Shown: positions 1-43,518 of the stretch, one piece after another | Numbering within the stretch: the first letter of the stretch is position 1 | How the letters are laid out: each line of letters opens with the position of its first letter | DNA from: Candidatus Shapirobacteria bacterium | GTDB lineage: Bacteria > Patescibacteriota > Microgenomatia > UBA12405 > BS750m-G30 | Direction: 5' to 3' | Length of the DNA stretch: 64,000 bases | NCBI GenBank assembly: GCA_043817235.1 | Contig: JBDRHA010000007.1 | Coordinates: 9,212-73,211 of the forward strand | The notes under the pieces: generated by a model | What the model was told of the DNA's origin: nothing | Databases searched by the model: none | Seen by the model: the letters and a program-made list of their open reading frames with translations, nothing else | Position numbers and translations under genes: made by a program

Positions 1-18
1 TTATACTATAAGTTATAT

Positions 19-582
19 ATGCGAAGTCCAGAAACAAATAAAGTTCTTGAATATTATGACCAAGTTTGGCTTGAGCGCTTTAAAAGGGGTCTTAACCCAA
101 TATCTCTTGCTATGCATTATGGCTTCTATGCTGAAGGTGCTCCTCGCTGTTCATTAGAAGAGCATAAATTAAGAATGAATGATGAAGTAATTAATAGGCT
201 TGGTCTAGGGAATTGGGAAGATACAAAGTCTGTCTTAGATGCTGGTTGCGGCATTGGCGGAACAGCAATATATTTTGCACAACATTACCCCGACACTAAT
301 GTTTGCGGAATAACATTATCTCATGAGCAGGCGTTGTTAGGGCATCAGTTAGTAGCTGCTAGATCGCTTGAAAAACAAGTTTCGATAATTACGGGCGATT
401 ATCACCATATCCCTGTCGGGACTAGTATGTTTCATGCCTCATATGCAATAGAAAGCTCTTGTCATGCAGATAAAGAAATATTTTTAAAAGAAATCGAAAG
501 AATACTTGTTCCGGGGGGGCGCCTAGTTATAGCTGATATTTGGTTAACCGATAAACCAATGGATACAGAACAGGAAAAATAA
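19..582 (+). CDS. Class I SAM-dependent methyltransferase, N-terminal part. It is probably frameshifted: the reading frame continues in another frame to 875.
   Basis: Motif I VLDAGCGIGGTAIYFA, motif II/III ITGDYHHIP and LVPGGRLVIAD. 187 aa is too short for the fold. Frame 0 is open from 555 to 875 and reads like the C-terminal half. There is an A5 run at 575-579. Confidence 0.6.
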   Translation: MRSPETNKVLEYYDQVWLERFKRGLNPISLAMHYGFYAEGAPRCSLEEHKLRMNDEVINRLGLGNWEDTKSVLDAGCGIGGTAIYFAQHYPDTNVCGITLSHEQALLGHQLVAARSLEKQVSIITGDYHHIPVGTSMFHASYAIESSCHADKEIFLKEIERILVPGGRLVIADIWLTDKPMDTEQEK

Positions 583-925
583 TTAAATCTGCTCTTAAGG
601 GCTTTGCTCTAGTAGATTTTTACCCTCTTGATTGGATTGAAACCATTGTTCCTGTAGGACTTAAAGTGGTTGAGGATGTTGATATTTCACGCAATGTGCT
701 TCCAGGTATGCTGAAGTCTAAGATTAGAGCAGAAAAAAAGCTGCATTCGTCGCGGGGATTGTTTCTTTCCCCAGAAACAAAAGGACATTTGAGTGCCTGT
801 AGTTATGCCTACGATCTTGTTCGGGAAGATATTGTCGCATATAGGATTGTTACTCTTGAAAAAACTAATCAGTAGTGACCATGTGAGAATGGCCCGTTAT
901 CAGTTTTATCTCTTTTGGCTTTCAA

Positions 926-1093
926 AAACTGCTTTTTTCCAGATAGCGAGAGCCCTAGAGCAAGTCAGAACACATTTTGCCTCCCCTTAGCTTTAGCTCC
1001 GCGCTCAAGCTTGATTGTGGGTGATCAAGCTTTCGCGCTCCGCCTTTTTGTCTTTTTCTGCGCGATTTTTCTCGCTTTATTAAAGCGAGCTAT
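926..1093. repeat. Dispersed repeat family, copy A. It has the aaaactgcttttttccagatagtgagagccctagagcaagtcagaacacattttgcctcccc core, an aagcttgat/atcaagctt hairpin, and a terminal ctcgcttta/taaagcgag hairpin followed by a T-run.
   Basis: Near-identical to the segments at 2331-2493 and 3078-3272, and in inverse orientation to 14391-14600. Confidence 0.75.
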
Positions 1094-2243
1094 ATTTCTT
1101 TTTTAATTTACAATATAAATACAAGACCGAAAGAGAAGCTGGTTGTAAGAGAAGAAGAGCTTTGGTTGGACCTATTTTATCGGCAAAAAGACCAAGAAGC
1201 AAAGAGACTGCGGAAAAAGTAAGGCTTCCAAAAAGGGAATTAAGTGAGCCCATGGTTGCTCTTTGTTCTGAGCTAAACTCTTTTTGAAGTAAATTATTTT
1301 TAGCGGTCATTGATACTCCATGAAAAAAAGAAGTAGTAGACATTAGGGCTGGAGAAATTATTGTCGGGAATCCTAAAGAAAGGATGTTTATTATAACTCC
1401 GTAGACTTTCTTGTATATTAGAATGTTTAGCTCTGTAAACTTGTTAATTAGTTTACCGCTAAAGTAATAACTTAGAGCTGAGCCTATGTGGGACAGGGCT
1501 TTGGAAATACCAATGGCCCAAAGGGGCCAGAGAGTATTTACAAAGGCCGAGCGGAACTGATACGAACTTTCCCCTAAGGCGTAATCTAAAATTGAAGCCA
1601 GGCTTAAGTGGCGAAGTTTAGCGTTTTTACTGAAGTTTTTAAGAGCTTCTTTTATATGGGCAAAAACATTGGCTGTTTCTTGAATTTTAATTTTTGGTTC
1701 AATCGTAAAAATGCTTATTCCTAAACAGGTAAGCTGAGAAAGCACAGAAAGCCAAAGGACTAAAGAGAAAGACCAGTGGGCGATAACTGTCCCAATGATT
1801 GCTGAAATTGCCAAGGCGACTTGGAACATGGAATCAACCTTGCCAGAAAAAACATGATACTCGGCTTCTTGTTGAGTTTCGGCTAGAGTATCGTAAAGGA
1901 GGGCGTCATTATTGCCAGAATAAAAAGAGCGAGATAATCCTTCTAAAATTGCGCCTAAGATTAGAAAAAAGTAAGAACCGCCTAGAGCGTAAAAGACTAA
2001 GCCAAGGGCACTAAAAAGAGCGCCCAGAATTAAAGTCTTTCTCCGGCCAATCAAATCGGAGAAAATACCTGTGGGTACTTCAAAAATTGCAGCTGAAAGC
2101 ATTATGATTGAAAAAACACTCATTCCTAAAACGTAAGAGCCCGATACTTGAGAAAAGTAAATTATGGCTACTGGAGCGTATAGTTTAAAATCAGTAAAAA
2201 AGTTAAACCAAGTTAATAACTTGATGTTTTTCTGACTACTCAT
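1080..2243 (-). CDS. MFS-type transporter (12 predicted TM helices).
   Basis: 387 aa, hydrophobic throughout, with a GRR(K/R)-like loop (DLIGRRKTLILG) typical of MFS. Confidence 0.65.
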   Translation of the reverse strand: MSSQKNIKLLTWFNFFTDFKLYAPVAIIYFSQVSGSYVLGMSVFSIIMLSAAIFEVPTGIFSDLIGRRKTLILGALFSALGLVFYALGGSYFFLILGAILEGLSRSFYSGNNDALLYDTLAETQQEAEYHVFSGKVDSMFQVALAISAIIGTVIAHWSFSLVLWLSVLSQLTCLGISIFTIEPKIKIQETANVFAHIKEALKNFSKNAKLRHLSLASILDYALGESSYQFRSAFVNTLWPLWAIGISKALSHIGSALSYYFSGKLINKFTELNILIYKKVYGVIINILSLGFPTIISPALMSTTSFFHGVSMTAKNNLLQKEFSSEQRATMGSLNSLFGSLTFSAVSLLLGLFADKIGPTKALLLLQPASLSVLYLYCKLKKKYSSL

Positions 2244-2330
2244 GGGTCTATTGTACCGTTTTGGACTGGAGAAATAAAAAGCACTAGCAATTTAGAAACT
2301 TAATCTTGTGTTAAAAGAAGAAAGCCAAGC

Positions 2331-2493
2331 CCCAGCAAGTTCTTGCAATTAGTGAGAGCCCTAGAGCAAGTCAGAACACATTTTGCCTCCCCAAATCTTT
2401 AGCTCCGCGCTCAAGCTTGATGTGGGTGATCAAGCTTTCGCGCTCCGCCTTTTTGTTTTTTTCTGCGCGATTTTTCTCGCCCCTTGGGCGAGT
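2331..2493. repeat. Dispersed repeat family, copy B.
   Basis: Same core as copy A. The terminal hairpin here is ctcgccc/gggcgag (compensatory change) followed by TTTTGG. TATAAT at 2499-2504 abuts the downstream gene start. Confidence 0.75.
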
Positions 2494-2511
2494 TTTGGTA
2501 TAATTTTATTA

Positions 2512-3030
2512 ATGCGAAATCCTAAAAGAAGCCAGCTTATTGAAGAAGCAATAAAATTCTTAGTATTTAAGATTGATAAATCAGGCGATAACCCTAAACC
2601 AGTTGTTTTGCATAGCATTAGGGTAGGCCTGTATCTTGATGATTGTGGCTACAACAAAGAAGTAGTAATAGCCGGCGTTCTTCATGATTTACTTGAAGAC
2701 TCTGAAACAATACCCGAGGAAATTAAAGACAAATTTGGTCAAAAAGTAACTAGTTTGGTTCAGGCTTGTAGTTTTGATAAACAACTAAAAGATAAAAAGA
2801 AAAGATATTTTCAATCTTTTGAACGTTGCTTAAAGGCAGGAAGACCCGCCTTGCTTATTAAAGCAGCTGATTTTTTAGAAAATAGCTATTATTACCAGTT
2901 TGCTGAAGGTAGAGAGCTGAAACTTTGGTTGCTAGAGAAACTTAAACATTTTTTAGATCATAGCGAAAAAATAATTGGCAAAGAAACTGTTTGGCAAGAA
3001 TTGGGCGAGCAGCATAAAATACTTACCTAA
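2512..3030 (+). CDS. HD-domain phosphohydrolase, RelA/SpoT-type (small alarmone hydrolase-like).
   Basis: HSIRVG ... AGVLHDLLEDSE matches the (p)ppGpp hydrolase HD motif. The N-terminal extension of the ORF-track model (2383) is repeat-encoded. Confidence 0.55.
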   Translation: MRNPKRSQLIEEAIKFLVFKIDKSGDNPKPVVLHSIRVGLYLDDCGYNKEVVIAGVLHDLLEDSETIPEEIKDKFGQKVTSLVQACSFDKQLKDKKKRYFQSFERCLKAGRPALLIKAADFLENSYYYQFAEGRELKLWLLEKLKHFLDHSEKIIGKETVWQELGEQHKILT

Positions 3031-3077
3031 TTAAAAGAGCCGCATTGACCTCTACCCTTATGAGTGTATTAATCAAA

Positions 3078-3272
3078 GAAGCACCCAGCAAGTTCTTACA
3101 ATTAGTGAGAGTCCTAGAGCAAGTCAGAACACATTTTGCCTCCCCAAATCTTTAGCTCCGCGCTCAAGCTTGATTGTGGGTGATCAAGCTTTCGCGCTCC
3201 GCCTTTTTGTTTTTCTCCAACTTGCAGTTGGAGTTTTGGTTTTGCGCGATTTTTCTGGCTCAGGCGAGCCAG
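3078..3272. repeat. Dispersed repeat family, copy C. It carries an extra inserted palindrome, ctccaacttgcagttggag.
   Basis: Same core. The terminal hairpin variant is ctggctc/gagccag. Confidence 0.75.
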
Positions 3273-3422
3273 TAATATAGTTCGACATATAGAACAAAGT
3301 AATCAGTAACCCAATCTAATAGAATTAAATACTTTGTGTATGTTTTGAAACCTTAGGAAATATTTTTAAAATCATCATTCTATACGAGAAAATCGGAATG
3401 GCCCATGTTATAATAATAGTCT

Positions 3423-4040
3423 ATGACAGCCATTAAACCAGAACCTTTTAGAATCAAGATGGTTGAATCCATCAAGATTCCTTCACGAGAACAACGAGAG
3501 AAATTAATAACCCAAGCTGGATATAATGTCTTCAAACTAAAAATTGACGATATCTTTATTGATCTGCTAACTGATAGCGGCACTAGTGCTATGAGTGATA
3601 ATCAATGGGCAGCTATGTTTAAAACTAAACAGTCTTATGCTGGCACTAATAGTTTTTACCAATTAAGAAAGATAGTTTCAAGGGTATTTGGTTTCAAATA
3701 TTTTTTACCTGTTCACCAAGGTCGTCCCGGCGAACACATTCTCTTTTCCTCCCTTGTTAAGCCTGGAGACTTTGTTCCCAATAATTCTCATTTTGATACT
3801 ACTTATGCCAATGTTAAATTAGCCAATGGTCATCCTCGTGATTTTGTTATTAAAGAAGCTTATCAAGCAAGAAATAGCCTTTCTTTTAAGGGCAATATGG
3901 ATATAAACAAACTTGAGAATTTTGTGGCCAAAAACAAGTCTAAAATTTCTTTAATTATGACGACCATTACAAATAATACCGTGAGATATAAAGTTTATAA
4001 GAAAATATATGCCACATGGATCTGGAGAGGTAAGAACTGA
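3423..4040 (+). pseudogene. tnaA: Truncated tryptophanase/tyrosine phenol-lyase (beta-eliminating lyase). Only the N-terminal ~190 aa are present.
   Basis: EPFRIKMVE, AGYNVFKL, DLLTDSGTSAMSDNQWAAM, QGRPGEHILF and MTTITNN match the TnaA/TPL N-terminus. The protein diverges after TITNN. About 250 aa of the C-terminus, including the PLP lysine region, are missing. Confidence 0.6.
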
Positions 4041-4303
4041 TTGTAATATTGGTTCGGCTAAACCTGGGAATTTAGTTTTAATTCCTAATAAAAAAGCGCT
4101 TTTCAAAATGGTGAGATATTTTGGATTTGAAGACTTAATGGAGGTAATTCCCCACCGGTTTTCTAGCCTTCCTTATAAAGGAAATTATCGAGTTTGTTTT
4201 TTTGCTCTTCGGCGGAGTGAAAAGGGCTTTTTCCCAATTTCTGAAACTCAACGTGCGCTAGACAGGGATTAATGGTGATTATTAATTGAAAATAAGATAA
4301 TAT

Positions 4304-5371
4304 ATGGGTAAAATAGAAAAAGAGATGGTAGAGGGATCACAGGAAATGAAAGAAAGAAAAAGCAGTAGCGAAGTTTTTATCACAGGCATTAGGCCAACTA
4401 GTGAAGATTTGCATGTAGGTAATTATCTAGGTGCAGTGAGAGATCTTGTCGAGCTTCAAAGAGAAGGTCGACCACTTCTTGTTTTTGTAGCTGATTTACA
4501 CGCAATGACAACTCATGAACCTAAGGAAGTTTATGAAAATACACGAAATATCCTGATTAACTATTTAGCTGCTGGAGTTGATCCAGAATTGTGCCATTTT
4601 TATATTCAATCTAGTTTTAGAGATCAAGTTTTAGAACTGGAAATGCAGCTTTCTCGGTTTTTTTCTGTGGCTGAGGCAATGAGGGTTCCTACCCTTAAAG
4701 ATAAAGTTGATGACCCCAAAAAGGCAAGTTTGTTTTTGCTTCGCTATCCGACTTTAATGGCCGCTGATATTCTAGGAATGAGGGCGGAAAAAGTACCTGT
4801 TGGGGAAGATCAAGTTGCTCATGTAGAAGTTTCTAGAGTATTAGCCAGAAGATTTAATAAGAGATACGGAAATATTTTTCCCTTACCAGAAGCTTTTGCA
4901 ACAGAGCCACTTAGGTTGTCTTCCCTAGATGGTCGAGGGAAAATGAGCAAATCAAATCCCAAGGGAGCGGTTTCTTTAAACGATTCAGAAGCTGATATTA
5001 GAAAAAAGATAAAAAGGGCAGTTACTGAAGTGCTGGAGGGAAAGCCAGAGCAAATGAGCCCACAAGTGACAGGCCTTTTTACCATGGGGAGAGAATTAAG
5101 ACCAAATTCTGAAGAAATAGAGGCATTGTCGCAGATGGAAGACTCATATTGGCAAGGCGACTTACAATTTTCACAGTTAAAAACAATTGTTGCGGAAATT
5201 ACCGCTAGGTTTGTTGGCGAATTCCAGCTAGAGAAAAAAAGATGGGAAGAAAAACCTGAGCTGGTTGAGGAAATACTAGAAGGAGGAACGGAAGTGGCTA
5301 GGCAGAGAATTAGTGAAACAATGGAATTGGTTCATGGAGCAATTGGAACTAGTTTGAAGTTAGGCTCCTGA
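4304..5371 (+). CDS. trpS: Tryptophan--tRNA ligase.
   Basis: GIRPTSEDLHVGNYLGAV is a HIGH-like motif. VADLHAMTT is present. The KMSKS motif is literally present. Confidence 0.9.
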   Translation: MGKIEKEMVEGSQEMKERKSSSEVFITGIRPTSEDLHVGNYLGAVRDLVELQREGRPLLVFVADLHAMTTHEPKEVYENTRNILINYLAAGVDPELCHFYIQSSFRDQVLELEMQLSRFFSVAEAMRVPTLKDKVDDPKKASLFLLRYPTLMAADILGMRAEKVPVGEDQVAHVEVSRVLARRFNKRYGNIFPLPEAFATEPLRLSSLDGRGKMSKSNPKGAVSLNDSEADIRKKIKRAVTEVLEGKPEQMSPQVTGLFTMGRELRPNSEEIEALSQMEDSYWQGDLQFSQLKTIVAEITARFVGEFQLEKKRWEEKPELVEEILEGGTEVARQRISETMELVHGAIGTSLKLGS

Positions 5372-5395
5372 CCTTTTAAATTTCATCTTGAATGA

Positions 5396-6064
5396 ATGAA
5401 TGAATCACCCCGTGTTGTTTTTAATTTTAGGAATGGTTATTTAAAGATTCCCCAGCAAGCCTACTTTTTAATTGTAAATAAAAAAGGAATAATTTTTGAT
5501 ATGGATGGCACATTGATCGATATGGAAAGAGCTAATTATGAGATGTACAGGAAAACAATAAGTAAAATTTATCAGCTTAATATTTCTCTATCTGATTGGA
5601 ACAAAATATTTAAAGGTCGGAGACCCCAAGATTCAGTTGTGGATTTTTTAAAAGATAAAGGGGTTGAGGAGAAGTTCAATTTTAAGAAATTTAAGCAAGT
5701 TGCAACCCCAATAAAAAGAAACATTATTTTTTCCGAATTAAACAATCATGTCAAAATCCTTGCTGGGGCTAGTAAATTTTTGAAACATCTAGCAGAAGAT
5801 AAAAAAAAGAAGTTGGCTCTAGTTACCTCAACCGCAGCTGTTTTTGTTAAACCAATTTTAATTCAATTTAAAATTGCTAAATACTTTGACCTAATCCTGA
5901 CCGGAGAATCGGTGAGTAAGGGTAAACCCAATCCTGAGATTTATCTTAAAGCACTTCAGGCTCTAGATCTTCTTAGTTCGGATTGCTTGGTTTTTGAAGA
6001 TTCGGAATCAGGCATCAAGGCAGCTTTAACAGCAGGAATTGACTGTGTTAAGGTTATCACTTAA
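5396..6064 (+). CDS. HAD-IA family hydrolase (phosphatase / beta-phosphoglucomutase-like).
   Basis: DMDGTLID motif I, a SGKP-type K motif (SKGKPNPE), and FEDSESGIKAA motif IV. Confidence 0.6.
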   Translation: MNESPRVVFNFRNGYLKIPQQAYFLIVNKKGIIFDMDGTLIDMERANYEMYRKTISKIYQLNISLSDWNKIFKGRRPQDSVVDFLKDKGVEEKFNFKKFKQVATPIKRNIIFSELNNHVKILAGASKFLKHLAEDKKKKLALVTSTAAVFVKPILIQFKIAKYFDLILTGESVSKGKPNPEIYLKALQALDLLSSDCLVFEDSESGIKAALTAGIDCVKVIT

Positions 6065-6124
6065 CGTTATCAAGTTGTTCTTATTATTTTTTAAAGATAT
6101 TAACCAATATTTTATAAGCTTAAA

Positions 6125-6532
6125 ATGAATATCTATCTTGATATTGACGGGGTAATTTTAGCAAACGACCTGCAGCCGGCTAGACATGCCAAAAAGTTTA
6201 TTAAATTCTTAACAGATAACTTTGATGTTTATTGGCTTACTACTCATTGCAAAGGGGATGCTGATTATACGGTTAATCATATTGCTCGGTTTTTTGATAT
6301 AGAAACAATTGGGATGTTAAAGAAAATAAAACCAACCAATTGGGAAACGGCTAAAACCGAAGCCATTGATTTTAGTAAACCTTTTTTCTGGTTTGATGAT
6401 GATCTTTTTGATTTTGAAAGAAAAGATTTAGAAAAGCATAATGCCCTAAAGGGCTGGATCGAGGTTGATTTTAGCAAGAACCTGGATCAGCTTTTGGAGT
6501 TTATAGAGTTTCTAAAAGATTTTATTTCTTAA
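6125..6532 (+). CDS. HAD-like small hydrolase (hypothetical).
   Basis: IYLDIDGVI is a DxDGV motif. Confidence 0.35.
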   Translation: MNIYLDIDGVILANDLQPARHAKKFIKFLTDNFDVYWLTTHCKGDADYTVNHIARFFDIETIGMLKKIKPTNWETAKTEAIDFSKPFFWFDDDLFDFERKDLEKHNALKGWIEVDFSKNLDQLLEFIEFLKDFIS

Positions 6533-41915: not shown

Positions 41916-43268
41916 TTGTACCCTGAAATGGGAACATACAACCAAAATCAACAAAAAGAGCTTCCAAAAATCAAATACTGTCTTTATGCCCGCAAATCTT
42001 CCGAATCAGATGAGCGCCAAGCCATGTCAATTGGTTCTCAGATTGAAGAAATGAAAACACTGGCAAAACGAGATAATCTCAAAATTAAGGAGATAAAGCA
42101 AGAAAGCCACTCGGCCAAGAATTCTGGCTCCAGACCCGTCTTTACCCAACTACTCCAAGAGATAAGACAAAAGAAGTTTAACGGCATACTTACCTGGGCT
42201 CCGGATAGATTAAGTAGAAATGCAGGTGACTTAGGATCGGTAGTAGATCTAATGGATCAAGGAAAACTTATAAAAATCCAAACATACTCGCAAAGTTTCA
42301 GCAATAGTCCAAATGAAAAATTCTTACTAATGATTCTCTGTTCTCAGGCAAAGCTAGAGAACGATAACAAGGGCGTAAACGTTCAAAGAGGACTCAGGAC
42401 TAAGTGTGCCATGGGCTGGCGTCCTAGCATCGCTCCACTAGGCTACTTAAACCAAAAAGGTGATGGTCACGTCGATGAATTGATTATTCTTGACTTGGAA
42501 CGATCATCTTTTGTCACTCAAATGTTCAAAAGAGTTGCTAATCAAGGCCATAGCGGAAGAGCATTAAAAAACTGGCTAGATAGAATTGGATTTGAAACTA
42601 GAAATGGAAATAAAATCCCATTGAGTAAAGTATATTCAACTCTCAAGAATCCATTCTATTACGGTGAGTTTGAATTCCCCGTGGGCAGTGGCACATGGTA
42701 CAAGGGCAAACACAAACCACTCATTACAAAAGAAATCTTCGATAAAGTTCAAGCTATTCTTCAGACTGTTCCCAAGGGATATAAAAATAAAGTCTTTCCA
42801 TTTAAGAAAATCTTCAAATGTGGAAGTTGTGGTGGAAATGTAACAGCTGAAGAAAAGTACAGGAAACTAAAACATGGTGGTTGTACAAAACACATTTACT
42901 ACCACTGTGGCAGATCTATCGATTATCAATGCGATGAGCCATACATTACTGAAGCTAACTTAATTAAACAACTCATAGCCAATATCGATAAAATGAAGTT
43001 CAACTACGCTGGAATAACCAGAAAAATCCAGCAAGACATTGAAAGATATCACAAACTAAAAACACAGGTACTTCATCAGGAATTTATTGACGGTAATTTA
43101 ACTGAATTCAACAATGTTCCCAAAACTGTTGCTGACAAAAATAAAATGACCAAAAACTACGTACTCCACATTCTCAAAGTAGGCACAGCAGAAGAAAGAC
43201 AAGAAGCTCTGTCGTTTATCAAAACAAAGTTCATTCTGTCAAAAAGAACGATAATAATACAGAAATAA
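41916..43268 (+). CDS. Large serine recombinase (integrase-type).
   Basis: The YARKSSESDERQAMSIGSQ catalytic region. A recombinase domain. A C-terminal Cys cluster CGSCGG...HCG. Confidence 0.8.
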   Translation: MYPEMGTYNQNQQKELPKIKYCLYARKSSESDERQAMSIGSQIEEMKTLAKRDNLKIKEIKQESHSAKNSGSRPVFTQLLQEIRQKKFNGILTWAPDRLSRNAGDLGSVVDLMDQGKLIKIQTYSQSFSNSPNEKFLLMILCSQAKLENDNKGVNVQRGLRTKCAMGWRPSIAPLGYLNQKGDGHVDELIILDLERSSFVTQMFKRVANQGHSGRALKNWLDRIGFETRNGNKIPLSKVYSTLKNPFYYGEFEFPVGSGTWYKGKHKPLITKEIFDKVQAILQTVPKGYKNKVFPFKKIFKCGSCGGNVTAEEKYRKLKHGGCTKHIYYHCGRSIDYQCDEPYITEANLIKQLIANIDKMKFNYAGITRKIQQDIERYHKLKTQVLHQEFIDGNLTEFNNVPKTVADKNKMTKNYVLHILKVGTAEERQEALSFIKTKFILSKRTIIIQK

Positions 43269-43445
43269 CAGCGTCATTTAGGAGTGGCGTACTTCTCGTG
43301 GTTTAAAAAGTAAGTTTTTACTGAAACTTAAACCATACATTACAGGATCTAAAACGACACTTCGAGCAAACTGAAGAAAAATTAGCAAGCAACATCGGGC
43401 TTTTTGGCGCAGGCGTACGGGTCGCCCTGAACCTGGCGATACTTG

Positions 43446-43518
43446 TGACCCCACGGGGAATCGAACCCCGGTTTCCAGGATGAGAACCTGGTGTCCTAGG
43501 CCGCTAGACGATGGGGCC
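43446..43518 (-). tRNA. tRNA-Glu (anticodon CTC).
   Basis: Manual fold. GGCCCCA acceptor. D-arm GTCTAGCGGCCTAGGAC. Anticodon stem CCAGG/CCTGG with loop TTCTCAT. T-arm GGTTCGATTCC. CCA is not encoded. Confidence 0.75.

Follow-up and report, generated by a model that had tools for sequence, protein, structure and literature searches.

Structured repeats in a Candidatus Shapirobacteria contig as probable crossover-site modules of large serine recombinase elements

We analysed a family of structured repeats, copies A to D, in 64,000 nt of a Candidatus Shapirobacteria genome (contig JBDRHA010000007.1, positions 9,212 to 73,211; this whole stretch is referred to below as the window, and coordinates without a record name are those of the window). 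Three direct copies (A, B and C) separate single genes, and an inverse copy (D) lies next to a large serine recombinase (LSR) gene. Comparison of these sequences with those of relatives leads us to favour, on balance, a reading in which the repeats are crossover-site junction modules of Patescibacteria (Candidate Phyla Radiation, CPR) LSR elements arranged in a tandem array. A tie of the repeat to site-specific recombination, proposed by the initial annotation of this DNA, is supported.

According to this reading, each repeat would consist of the recombinase-distal arm of the crossover site of an LSR element and a short relic of the recombinase-proximal arm. The open reading frame (ORF) of the recombinase would span the crossover (…GTG^A…, where the caret marks the junction), and on the far side a module of ~100–170 nt would code for the last ~12 residues (LVxxxEQ(I/V)RTxF, then stop). 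The tail codons would be followed by two to four perfect palindromes and then by a copy of a recombinase segment, which is inverted segment 'a' in type 1 modules and direct segment 'b' in type 2. In an element residing beside a tRNA gene, the recombinase ORF would instead continue into the 3′ end of the tRNA, with the module located at the opposite end of the element. Each of copies A, B and C would represent a recombinase-side half-site of 25–35 nt, the crossover and the module, in this order, as between neighbours in tandem integrated elements, and the units between them would have been reduced to, or would always have been, single cargo genes without a recombinase. Copy D would be the type 2 form, an alternative recombinase 3′ end inverted upstream, so that inverted copies of the gene's 3′ end lie on both sides of its body.

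Copies of the repeat and their recombinase-derived coding end

A repeat finder returned the three direct copies at 934–1058 (A), 2340–2464 (B) and 3093–3217 (C) and the inverse copy at 14441–14500 (D), and an nhmmer profile built from the copies gave exactly four matches in the 64 kb (899–1112, 2309–2511 and 3054–3295 on the plus strand; 14408–14601 on the minus strand). Over the shared module, the pairwise identity of A, B and C was 93–96%, and that of D to A–C was 86–91%. The three direct copies of the initial annotation, described there as sharing a core of more than 90% identity, and its one inverse copy were recovered. Its extra palindrome in copy C was also present, and copy D, as described, lacks the central hairpin and forms one end of the recombinase unit, abutting the gene at 14630 (Table 1).

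Exact 20-mer scans of the core found one record in GTDB genomes and one in JGI metagenomes, and no match in IMG/VR. Related copies are present in two other records, L001 (three copies) and L002 (two copies), so the family does not consist of assembly duplications. The copies in L001 lie on one strand within 8 kb, one of them full, one a left half and one a right half (the partial copies are at 4060–4196 and 5109–5153); those in L002 flank one gene. Six-frame translation of the repeat gave no match at E ≤ 10 among 5.8 billion proteins, short tails being undetectable in this way. Within the ORFs 915–1106 and 2383–3030 the repeat encodes the peptide GDQAFALRLFVFFCAIFLA, the source of the spurious N-termini pointed out earlier, and the TATAAT reported right after copy B is indeed there. 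On the strand complementary to the recombinase tail, GGGGAGG, a spacer of 5 nt, ATG and a six-codon ORF are found in all copies (MCSDLL, then stop; 960–990, 2370–2392 and 3123–3145 on the minus strand, 14449–14479 on the plus strand), which is probably a by-product of the tail codons.

The 5′ part of the repeat corresponds to the last ~12 codons of an LSR ORF, with the tail LVxxxEQ(I/V)RTxF and a stop codon, and follows a gene relic of 25–35 nt. In the frame that continues the relic, copies A to C read …(KTAFFQIA / SKFLQLV)RALEQVRTHFASP(NL) and stop. Taken individually, copy A ends in …KTAFFQIARALEQVRTHFASP and stop, copies B and C in …SKFLQLVR(A/V)LEQVRTHFASPNL and stop, and copy D has the same reading as B and C, interrupted by one missing T. 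As for the 120 best homologues of the window recombinase (14630), 6 end in tails of the …LVNVFEQIRTHFK type, and most of the other C-termini read into reverse-complemented tRNA T-arms (…LV TP.GIEP…, GFEPPTS), indicating that the ORF in this recombinase family crosses the attachment junction into the tRNA gene. A third class of C-terminal tails (…LV SQLSQNWNSLLTYFERVYYTLRRF…) was seen in L020 (980–1106) and in proteins P0063, P0039, P0041 and P0091, and suggests another type of distal module.

We compared the IRTxF codons of 10 tails, from the window and 7 other loci. Differences at codon positions 1, 2 and 3 numbered 63, 18 and 83, respectively, and within the block 85 differences were synonymous versus 50 non-synonymous (for example, Thr is encoded by ACT, ACG, ACC or ACA, and Arg by CGA or AGA). 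Given this codon-like substitution pattern, the conserved 60-nt core is coding sequence, the 3′ coding end of the recombinase ORF, and not a structural element. For the same reason, and because ARAGORN finds nothing there, we rejected as the main reading that the core is a tRNA-like or tmRNA-like target, a candidate raised by TTCGAAC in relatives. The relics upstream of the tail are of two kinds: copy A has ~25 nt of the resident recombinase allele (AAAACTGCTTTTTTCCAGATAG), and copies B and C have ~33 nt of a different allele (GAAGCACCCAGCAAGTTCTTACAATTAG), so that at least two recombinase lineages contributed.

Junctions in relatives and the recombinase gene body

L020–L025 carry a relative (P0055) fused to tRNA-Glu(CTC), and reveal the junction in several contexts. 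The live recombinase end reads …TTTTTTGGTG^ACCCC…, into the tRNA, while an inverted type 2 copy upstream of the recombinase reads …TTTTTTGGTG^AACGTTTTCGAAC…, into a module. Further upstream, at 3.5 kb, lies a type 1 module, and the sequence before it is an ORF of 574 aa that is unrelated (…CACTATCTGTG^AACG…). L023 is 99.96% identical to L020 from the exact first base of this module (412 in L023, 7972 in L020), and to the left of that base the two are unrelated (…AAAAAATAGTG^AACG…). One nucleotide, GTG^A, is hence common to four partnerships: recombinase with module, recombinase with tRNA-Glu, the 574-aa ORF with module, and an unrelated flank with module (L020/L023). At the equivalent point of the window, GTGAG, the recombinase ORF departs into a fragment that weakly resembles the 3′ end of tRNA-Glu, and copies A–D go on into the module. 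A site-specific crossover at GTG^A would be the simplest reading of these homology breakpoints; the recombinase would then cut at this point, and the units of the array may have arrived one by one.

By this scheme, the module in L020 would be the recombinase-distal arm at the far end of a 3.5-kb element comprising module, MFS gene, type 2 copy, small gene and recombinase and adjoining tRNA-Glu, and excision of this element would reunite the recombinase with its native tail; neither a circle nor an empty site was observed. The short contigs L004–L008 had no terminal overlap. An MFS gene adjoins a type 1 module both in the window (1080–2243) and in the distant element (8286–9365 in L020; 597–1805 in L023), the two proteins being remotely related (28% identity over 111 aa).

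The recombinase encoded at 14630 has the Pfam domains Resolvase, Recombinase and Zn_ribbon_recom, and belongs to a large family in Patescibacteria (4,752 proteins at E ≤ 1e-20 among the first 8,000 candidates), of which no relatives were found in viral contigs. Family members are typically ~510 aa long; the protein of the window is missing 53 residues of the catalytic domain, and it is therefore unlikely that it presently acts on the repeat sites. Given this loss, the array may be a fossil. A second LSR gene, within 41916–43518, encodes 450 aa with a complete Resolvase domain and lies 177 nt from tRNA-Glu(CTC) (43445–43518, minus strand). Past its stop codon the DNA reads, in another frame, …NIGLFGAGVRVALNLAILV^TPRGIEP, into the tRNA, which looks like a frameshifted 3′ end of the family type.

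In the window, the gene body lies between inverted repeats made up of copy D and the 3′ end of the recombinase gene (14478–14548 and 15907–15977), and it was seen in one orientation only. Both recombinases of L020 are flanked in a like manner (arms of 103 nt, 98% identity), and the sequences of contigs L004, L005 and L008 start within an inverted 3′-end copy of the recombinase gene. Comparison of L020 with L021 (1–900 compared) showed the ~1.45-kb recombinase body in opposite orientations; one boundary of the inverted segment coincides with the inner end of the repeat. These are assemblies from different samples that are otherwise 99.99–100% identical over their aligned parts; the recombinase body can thus flip between two 3′ ends. 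The agent of the flip may be either the recombinase or homologous recombination, which are indistinguishable from sequence. We do not claim the palindrome at the FFLK codons as the crossover, or copy D as a mini-element in a palindromic target, as both are inseparable from homologous recombination in inverted repeats of ~100 nt.

Palindromes and the two module types

In its 3′ part, the repeat has several perfect palindromes in a row and, in inverted orientation, 17 nt copied from a coding segment of the recombinase. Single-strand folds of the copies (z = −2.7 to −4.2 versus shuffles) contain the central hairpin (AAGCTTGAT/ATCAAGCTT), the additional palindrome of copy C and the copy-specific terminal hairpins. 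Folding of either strand as DNA also yields a TCGCGC/GCGCGA stem around a T-rich loop. The stop codon of the MFS gene sits in the loop of the terminal hairpin of copy A.

Downstream of the intact recombinases in L004–L008, which end in the tail found in the repeat, the stop codon is followed by a GC-rich perfect hairpin of unrelated sequence and then by one of two distal motifs. The type 1 motif, TTTTT(C)TGCGCG(CGCG)ATTTT followed by the terminal hairpin, is present in A–C, L002, L004 and L020 (7972–8113). It is the reverse complement of the recombinase coding segment KIA(R/Q)(A/K)K and tracks the cognate gene: segment a of the window matches the a′ segments of copies A and B, in inverted orientation, at 17 of 17 positions (0.03 expected by chance), and the matches in other loci are 23/23 in L004 and 26/27 in L020. 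The type 2 modules (D, L005, L006 and L020 9363–9652) contain a direct copy of K(K/N)(V/I)GSN, an optional palindrome and then AGAAA(A)ACGCAAAAATTT; segment b recurs, direct or inverted, in D, L005 and L006. The AGAAA(A)ACGCAAAAATTT motif of the window is found also just upstream of the recombinase ATG, which makes the 17-nt perfect inverted repeats around D.

The same slots are occupied by unrelated palindromes in different copies: CTCCAACT/AGTTGGAG in copy C, a relative of this palindrome in L002, and CCGCC/GGCGG in one L001 copy. As originally described, the terminal hairpins keep a fixed position and change in sequence, but the compensatory change ascribed to them comes down to very few events. 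Two inner pairs differ between A and B/L002a (TT/AA versus CC/GG), the register of pairing is shifted in the terminal hairpin of copy C, and this hairpin is absent from one L001 copy. The recombinase genes themselves contain palindromes at fixed codons, H1 at NCALQAQ and H2 at NCHDLSIMAK, which are 95.8% and 95.6% paired, respectively, in nine genes. Three pairs of H1 and six of H2 have changed on both sides and none on one side only, as judged from these few related sequences. Amino-acid changes result from some of these substitutions (ALQA→AILA in the window; C→S with A→G in L020), and in most of the genes aligned (L003–L008, L020 and the window) both palindromes have TTGC…GCAA outer ends. 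The four-helix structure (30 pairs) scored above all 500 shuffles and all slid controls.

The suggestion of a structured RNA was not upheld. Rfam gave no match in the whole window at the gathering score, and only chance-level matches (E ≥ 0.58) in 850–3350 at E ≤ 10, and the palindromes of the recombinase genes change on both sides only, with no G–U type intermediates. The Watson–Crick-only compensation, the independence of palindromes from orientation and the lack of an Rfam match favour double-stranded or cruciform DNA sites over RNA. The palindromes may accordingly serve as protein-binding or cruciform DNA sites, and perhaps also as terminators. In a simple terminator scan of the plus strand, the hairpins of A and B and the insert of C passed, the regional count being 5 versus 2.8±1.6 expected; 12 nt lie between the central hairpin and the T-run that follows it.

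This bears on a different and rather improbable explanation, that the repeat is a cis-regulatory or small-RNA module which spreads as an intergenic repeat, like miniature inverted-repeat transposable elements (MITEs) or repetitive extragenic palindromes (REPs), its likeness to the recombinase 3′ end marking only the place of origin. Each copy does have a hairpin followed by a T-run on the plus strand, yet terminator-like sites do not exceed the shuffled expectation given above, Rfam has no match, and the stems are without one-sided (G–U type) changes. Such a module could account for the promoter-like sequence after copy B and after L001 copy 2, and for the partial L001 copy that lies between convergent genes; however, the 5′ part evolves like coding sequence, and the MFS gene is oriented opposite to its flanking copies. 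The 17-nt perfect terminal inverted repeats of D are reminiscent of a MITE, but A–C have no such repeats, and inspection by eye revealed no duplicated target site next to D. Many dispersed copies would be typical of a MITE; the count here was four in 64 kb, with two other records containing the 20-mer.

Table 1. Features of the window. The a′ segments are inverted copies of recombinase coding segment a; b′ is a direct copy of segment b.
Feature	Position	Strand	Details
Copy A, type 1 module	924–1089	+	Relic of recombinase 3′ end 924–948; junction GCG^AG 948/949; tail codons to TAG 988–990; central hairpin 1007–1032; a′ 1053–1069; terminal hairpin 1071–1089
Copy B, type 1 module	2321–2492	+	Recombinase relic, second allele (…SKFLQLV) 2321–2354; junction GTG^AG 2354/2355; tail to TAG 2400–2402; central hairpin 2413–2437; a′ 2458–2474; terminal hairpin 2476–2492, then TTTT, TATAAT
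Copy C, type 1 module	3075–3273	+	Recombinase relic 3075–3107; junction 3107/3108; tail to TAG 3153–3155; central hairpin 3166–3191; inserted palindrome 3215–3233; a′ variant 3240–3254; terminal hairpin 3256–3273
Copy D, type 2 module	14374–14617	−	Between 17-nt perfect inverted repeats AAATTTTTGCGTTTCTA (14374–14390, 14601–14617); read on the minus strand: recombinase 3′-end relic 14560–14486; tail/core 14485–14441; middle motif; b′ (ENIGSN) 14409–14390
Unit 1 cargo, frameshifted S-adenosylmethionine (SAM)-methyltransferase gene	19–875 (19–582 + 666–875)	+	Pfam
Unit 2 cargo, MFS transporter gene	1080–2243	−	Pfam
Unit 3 cargo, HD-domain protein gene	2512–3030	+	Pfam; unique at 90% identity in a 15-billion-protein collection
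Unit 4 cargo, truncated beta-eliminating lyase (tnaA-like)	3423–3983	+	Pfam match 3423–4040
Degenerate LSR gene, 462 aa	14630–16018	+	H1 15769–15787; segment a 15788–15804; H2 15812–15835; segment b 15835–15854
Recombinase gene 3′-end arm	15907–15977		Inverted relative to 14478–14548; ORF past GTGAG (~15972) enters weak tRNA 3′-end-like fragment

The array, its cargo and comparison with known systems

The single-gene units between the copies, as noted in the initial annotation, were confirmed by Pfam (methyltransferase, MFS, HD and lyase fragment; Table 1), and they are strain-specific DNA. In relatives L009–L019 nothing matched window 1–3982, and the cargo proteins are singletons at 90% identity, while relatives of the tryptophanyl-tRNA synthetase (TrpRS) are found on many contigs. 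Over window 3983–6212 the same relatives are 89% identical at the nucleotide level, and in them an intact 321-aa methyltransferase gene abuts TrpRS. In the window, the truncated lyase gene is fused at ~3983 to a 3′ fragment (3983–4272, the 3′ third) of this methyltransferase gene. As 1–3982 is unmatched in the relatives and the fusion at ~3983 is illegitimate, the array is strain-specific DNA, and a deletion has removed its right end. The right boundary is thus the deletion junction rather than a clean empty site, and the left boundary is outside the window.

The 37 kb between a HAD gene and tRNA-Glu/UvrC (~6200–43400) constitute a defence island, with genes for DUF2130, an OLD-family nuclease, a type ISP restriction-modification enzyme, DUF3800, a SMODS nucleotidyltransferase, a ParB-methylase and DUF2779, and with a type I restriction-modification system interrupted by an inserted Shedu SduA gene. 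In the relatives this position is occupied by ~3–6 kb of unrelated DNA. The relatives differ among themselves in the DNA downstream of the HAD gene, with a six-tRNA cluster in L010 (13937–15533) and, in its place in L009 and L019, a block of unknown genes led by MerR.

Several observations weigh against crossover-site modules in a tandem array. For the family of the window, we recovered neither an empty site nor a circular junction, nor a full set of attB, attP, attL and attR. Canonical serine integrases join attP with attB and not with an occupied site, so tandem accretion would call for a different route or for non-canonical behaviour. The relics have ragged left edges (25–35 nt) and some of the copies outside the window are partial, a pattern that decay plus ordinary recombination would likewise yield. 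The deletion has crippled the local recombinase, and the array is not next to a tRNA gene, with a deletion junction at its right end and a left end beyond the window. Finally, near-identical copies are rare, only two other records having been found in the genome and metagenome scans.

Some of these observations would also fit a history in which at least three full elements lost their recombinases by deletion and homologous recombination, leaving the repeats as dead scars and the hairpins as leftovers of terminator regions, an account to which we give a minor share of the probability. The 53-residue deletion in the resident recombinase, two broken genes among the four cargo genes, the mismatched or missing hairpins and half modules among copies elsewhere, and the illegitimate deletion junction at the end of the array all agree with such decay. 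Scars of this kind would, however, be expected to spread over the 1.5-kb gene, whereas the left edges, of which five are independent, are all no more than ~45 nt from the crossover; A–C are still 93–96% identical and have perfect palindromes, and the L020/L023 breakpoint is base-exact.

The resemblance to the cassettes of attC-punctuated arrays, suggested by the initial annotation, holds for the layout only. As in integron arrays, single-gene units lie between structured repeats of variable stem sequence. An integron-like system, however, uses a tyrosine integrase (IntI) and folded single-stranded attC sites, and we could find neither here: the 49 window ORFs scanned had no Phage_integrase match, and the repeat consists of three or four separate perfect hairpins and an unpaired 60-nt coding tail instead of one imperfect R″-L″/L′-R′ palindrome. 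In addition, one cassette is reversed, and in relatives the repeats are continuous with serine recombinase genes. We therefore regard an integron-like origin as highly improbable.

The known process closest to crossover-site modules accumulating in tandem is the accretion of integrative elements at tRNA genes, as in tycheposons. In Prochlorococcus, tycheposon islands grow by successive site-specific integrations that push decayed older elements inward, and they leave repeated att-derived sequences, fragmented integrases and cargo-only units; their repeat is a partial tRNA and their integrases are nearly all tyrosine recombinases (bioRxiv 10.1101/2020.12.28.424599). The window is similar in having two LSR genes, tRNA-Glu(CTC) and the 37-kb defence island. 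It differs in that the repeat is a non-tRNA module of 140–190 nt, which contains several palindromes along with C-terminal codons of the recombinase; moreover, each unit is a single gene, and the array has no adjacent tRNA.

Tandem prophages of polylysogens have the order attL, prophage, attP, prophage, attR, and at their inner junctions the right end of each element meets the left end of its neighbour. Direct repeats derived from the 3′ end of rlmH punctuate SCCmec composite islands, and SCC elements likewise employ large serine recombinases (CcrAB) and comprise units that lack a recombinase. On our reading, the array of the window shares with these systems the inner junctions between neighbouring elements and the derivation of the repeats from the 3′ end of a gene. 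Unlike in SCCmec, the repeated gene end is that of the recombinase itself and not of a host gene, and the repeat is about ten times longer than SCC direct repeats and highly structured. Serine invertases (Hin/Gin/Cin/Min) and intragenic invertons flip a segment flanked by inverted repeats and thereby give alternative 3′ ends to a gene, which the inversion polymorphism between L020 and L021 resembles; here, in contrast, the flipped segment is the body of the LSR gene, whose own 3′ end, in duplicate, supplies the alternative ends. We know of no described case of an LSR gene body flipping between copies of its own 3′ end, and a literature search found no description of this architecture of module and recombinase.

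It is doubtful that the units of the array are still mobilisable cassettes. Equally tentative is the idea that Patescibacteria possess a serine-recombinase cassette system, in which single genes, delimited by a minimal half-site from the recombinase side and a structured distal module of ~150 nt, would be excised and reinserted in trans at double-stranded sites, the recombinase gene would flip its body between two inverted 3′-end copies, and its coding sequence would double as palindromic sites maintained by compensatory substitutions. If recombinase-less units were indeed still mobile, this would be a second and mechanistically different cassette system, a functional parallel to integrons that acts on double-stranded sites, and integrases with such long structured sites would be of interest to genome engineers. 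The interpretation of the repeats as crossover-site modules accounts for many odd C-termini of recombinases that run into tRNAs and for the spurious ORFs derived from the module. An ORF that crosses the junction, together with a recognisable structured module at the other end, would also provide a practical means to delimit such elements in metagenomes. CPR/Patescibacteria have tiny genomes, and their gain of genes is little described; this large family of recombinases appears to build their variable and defence islands.

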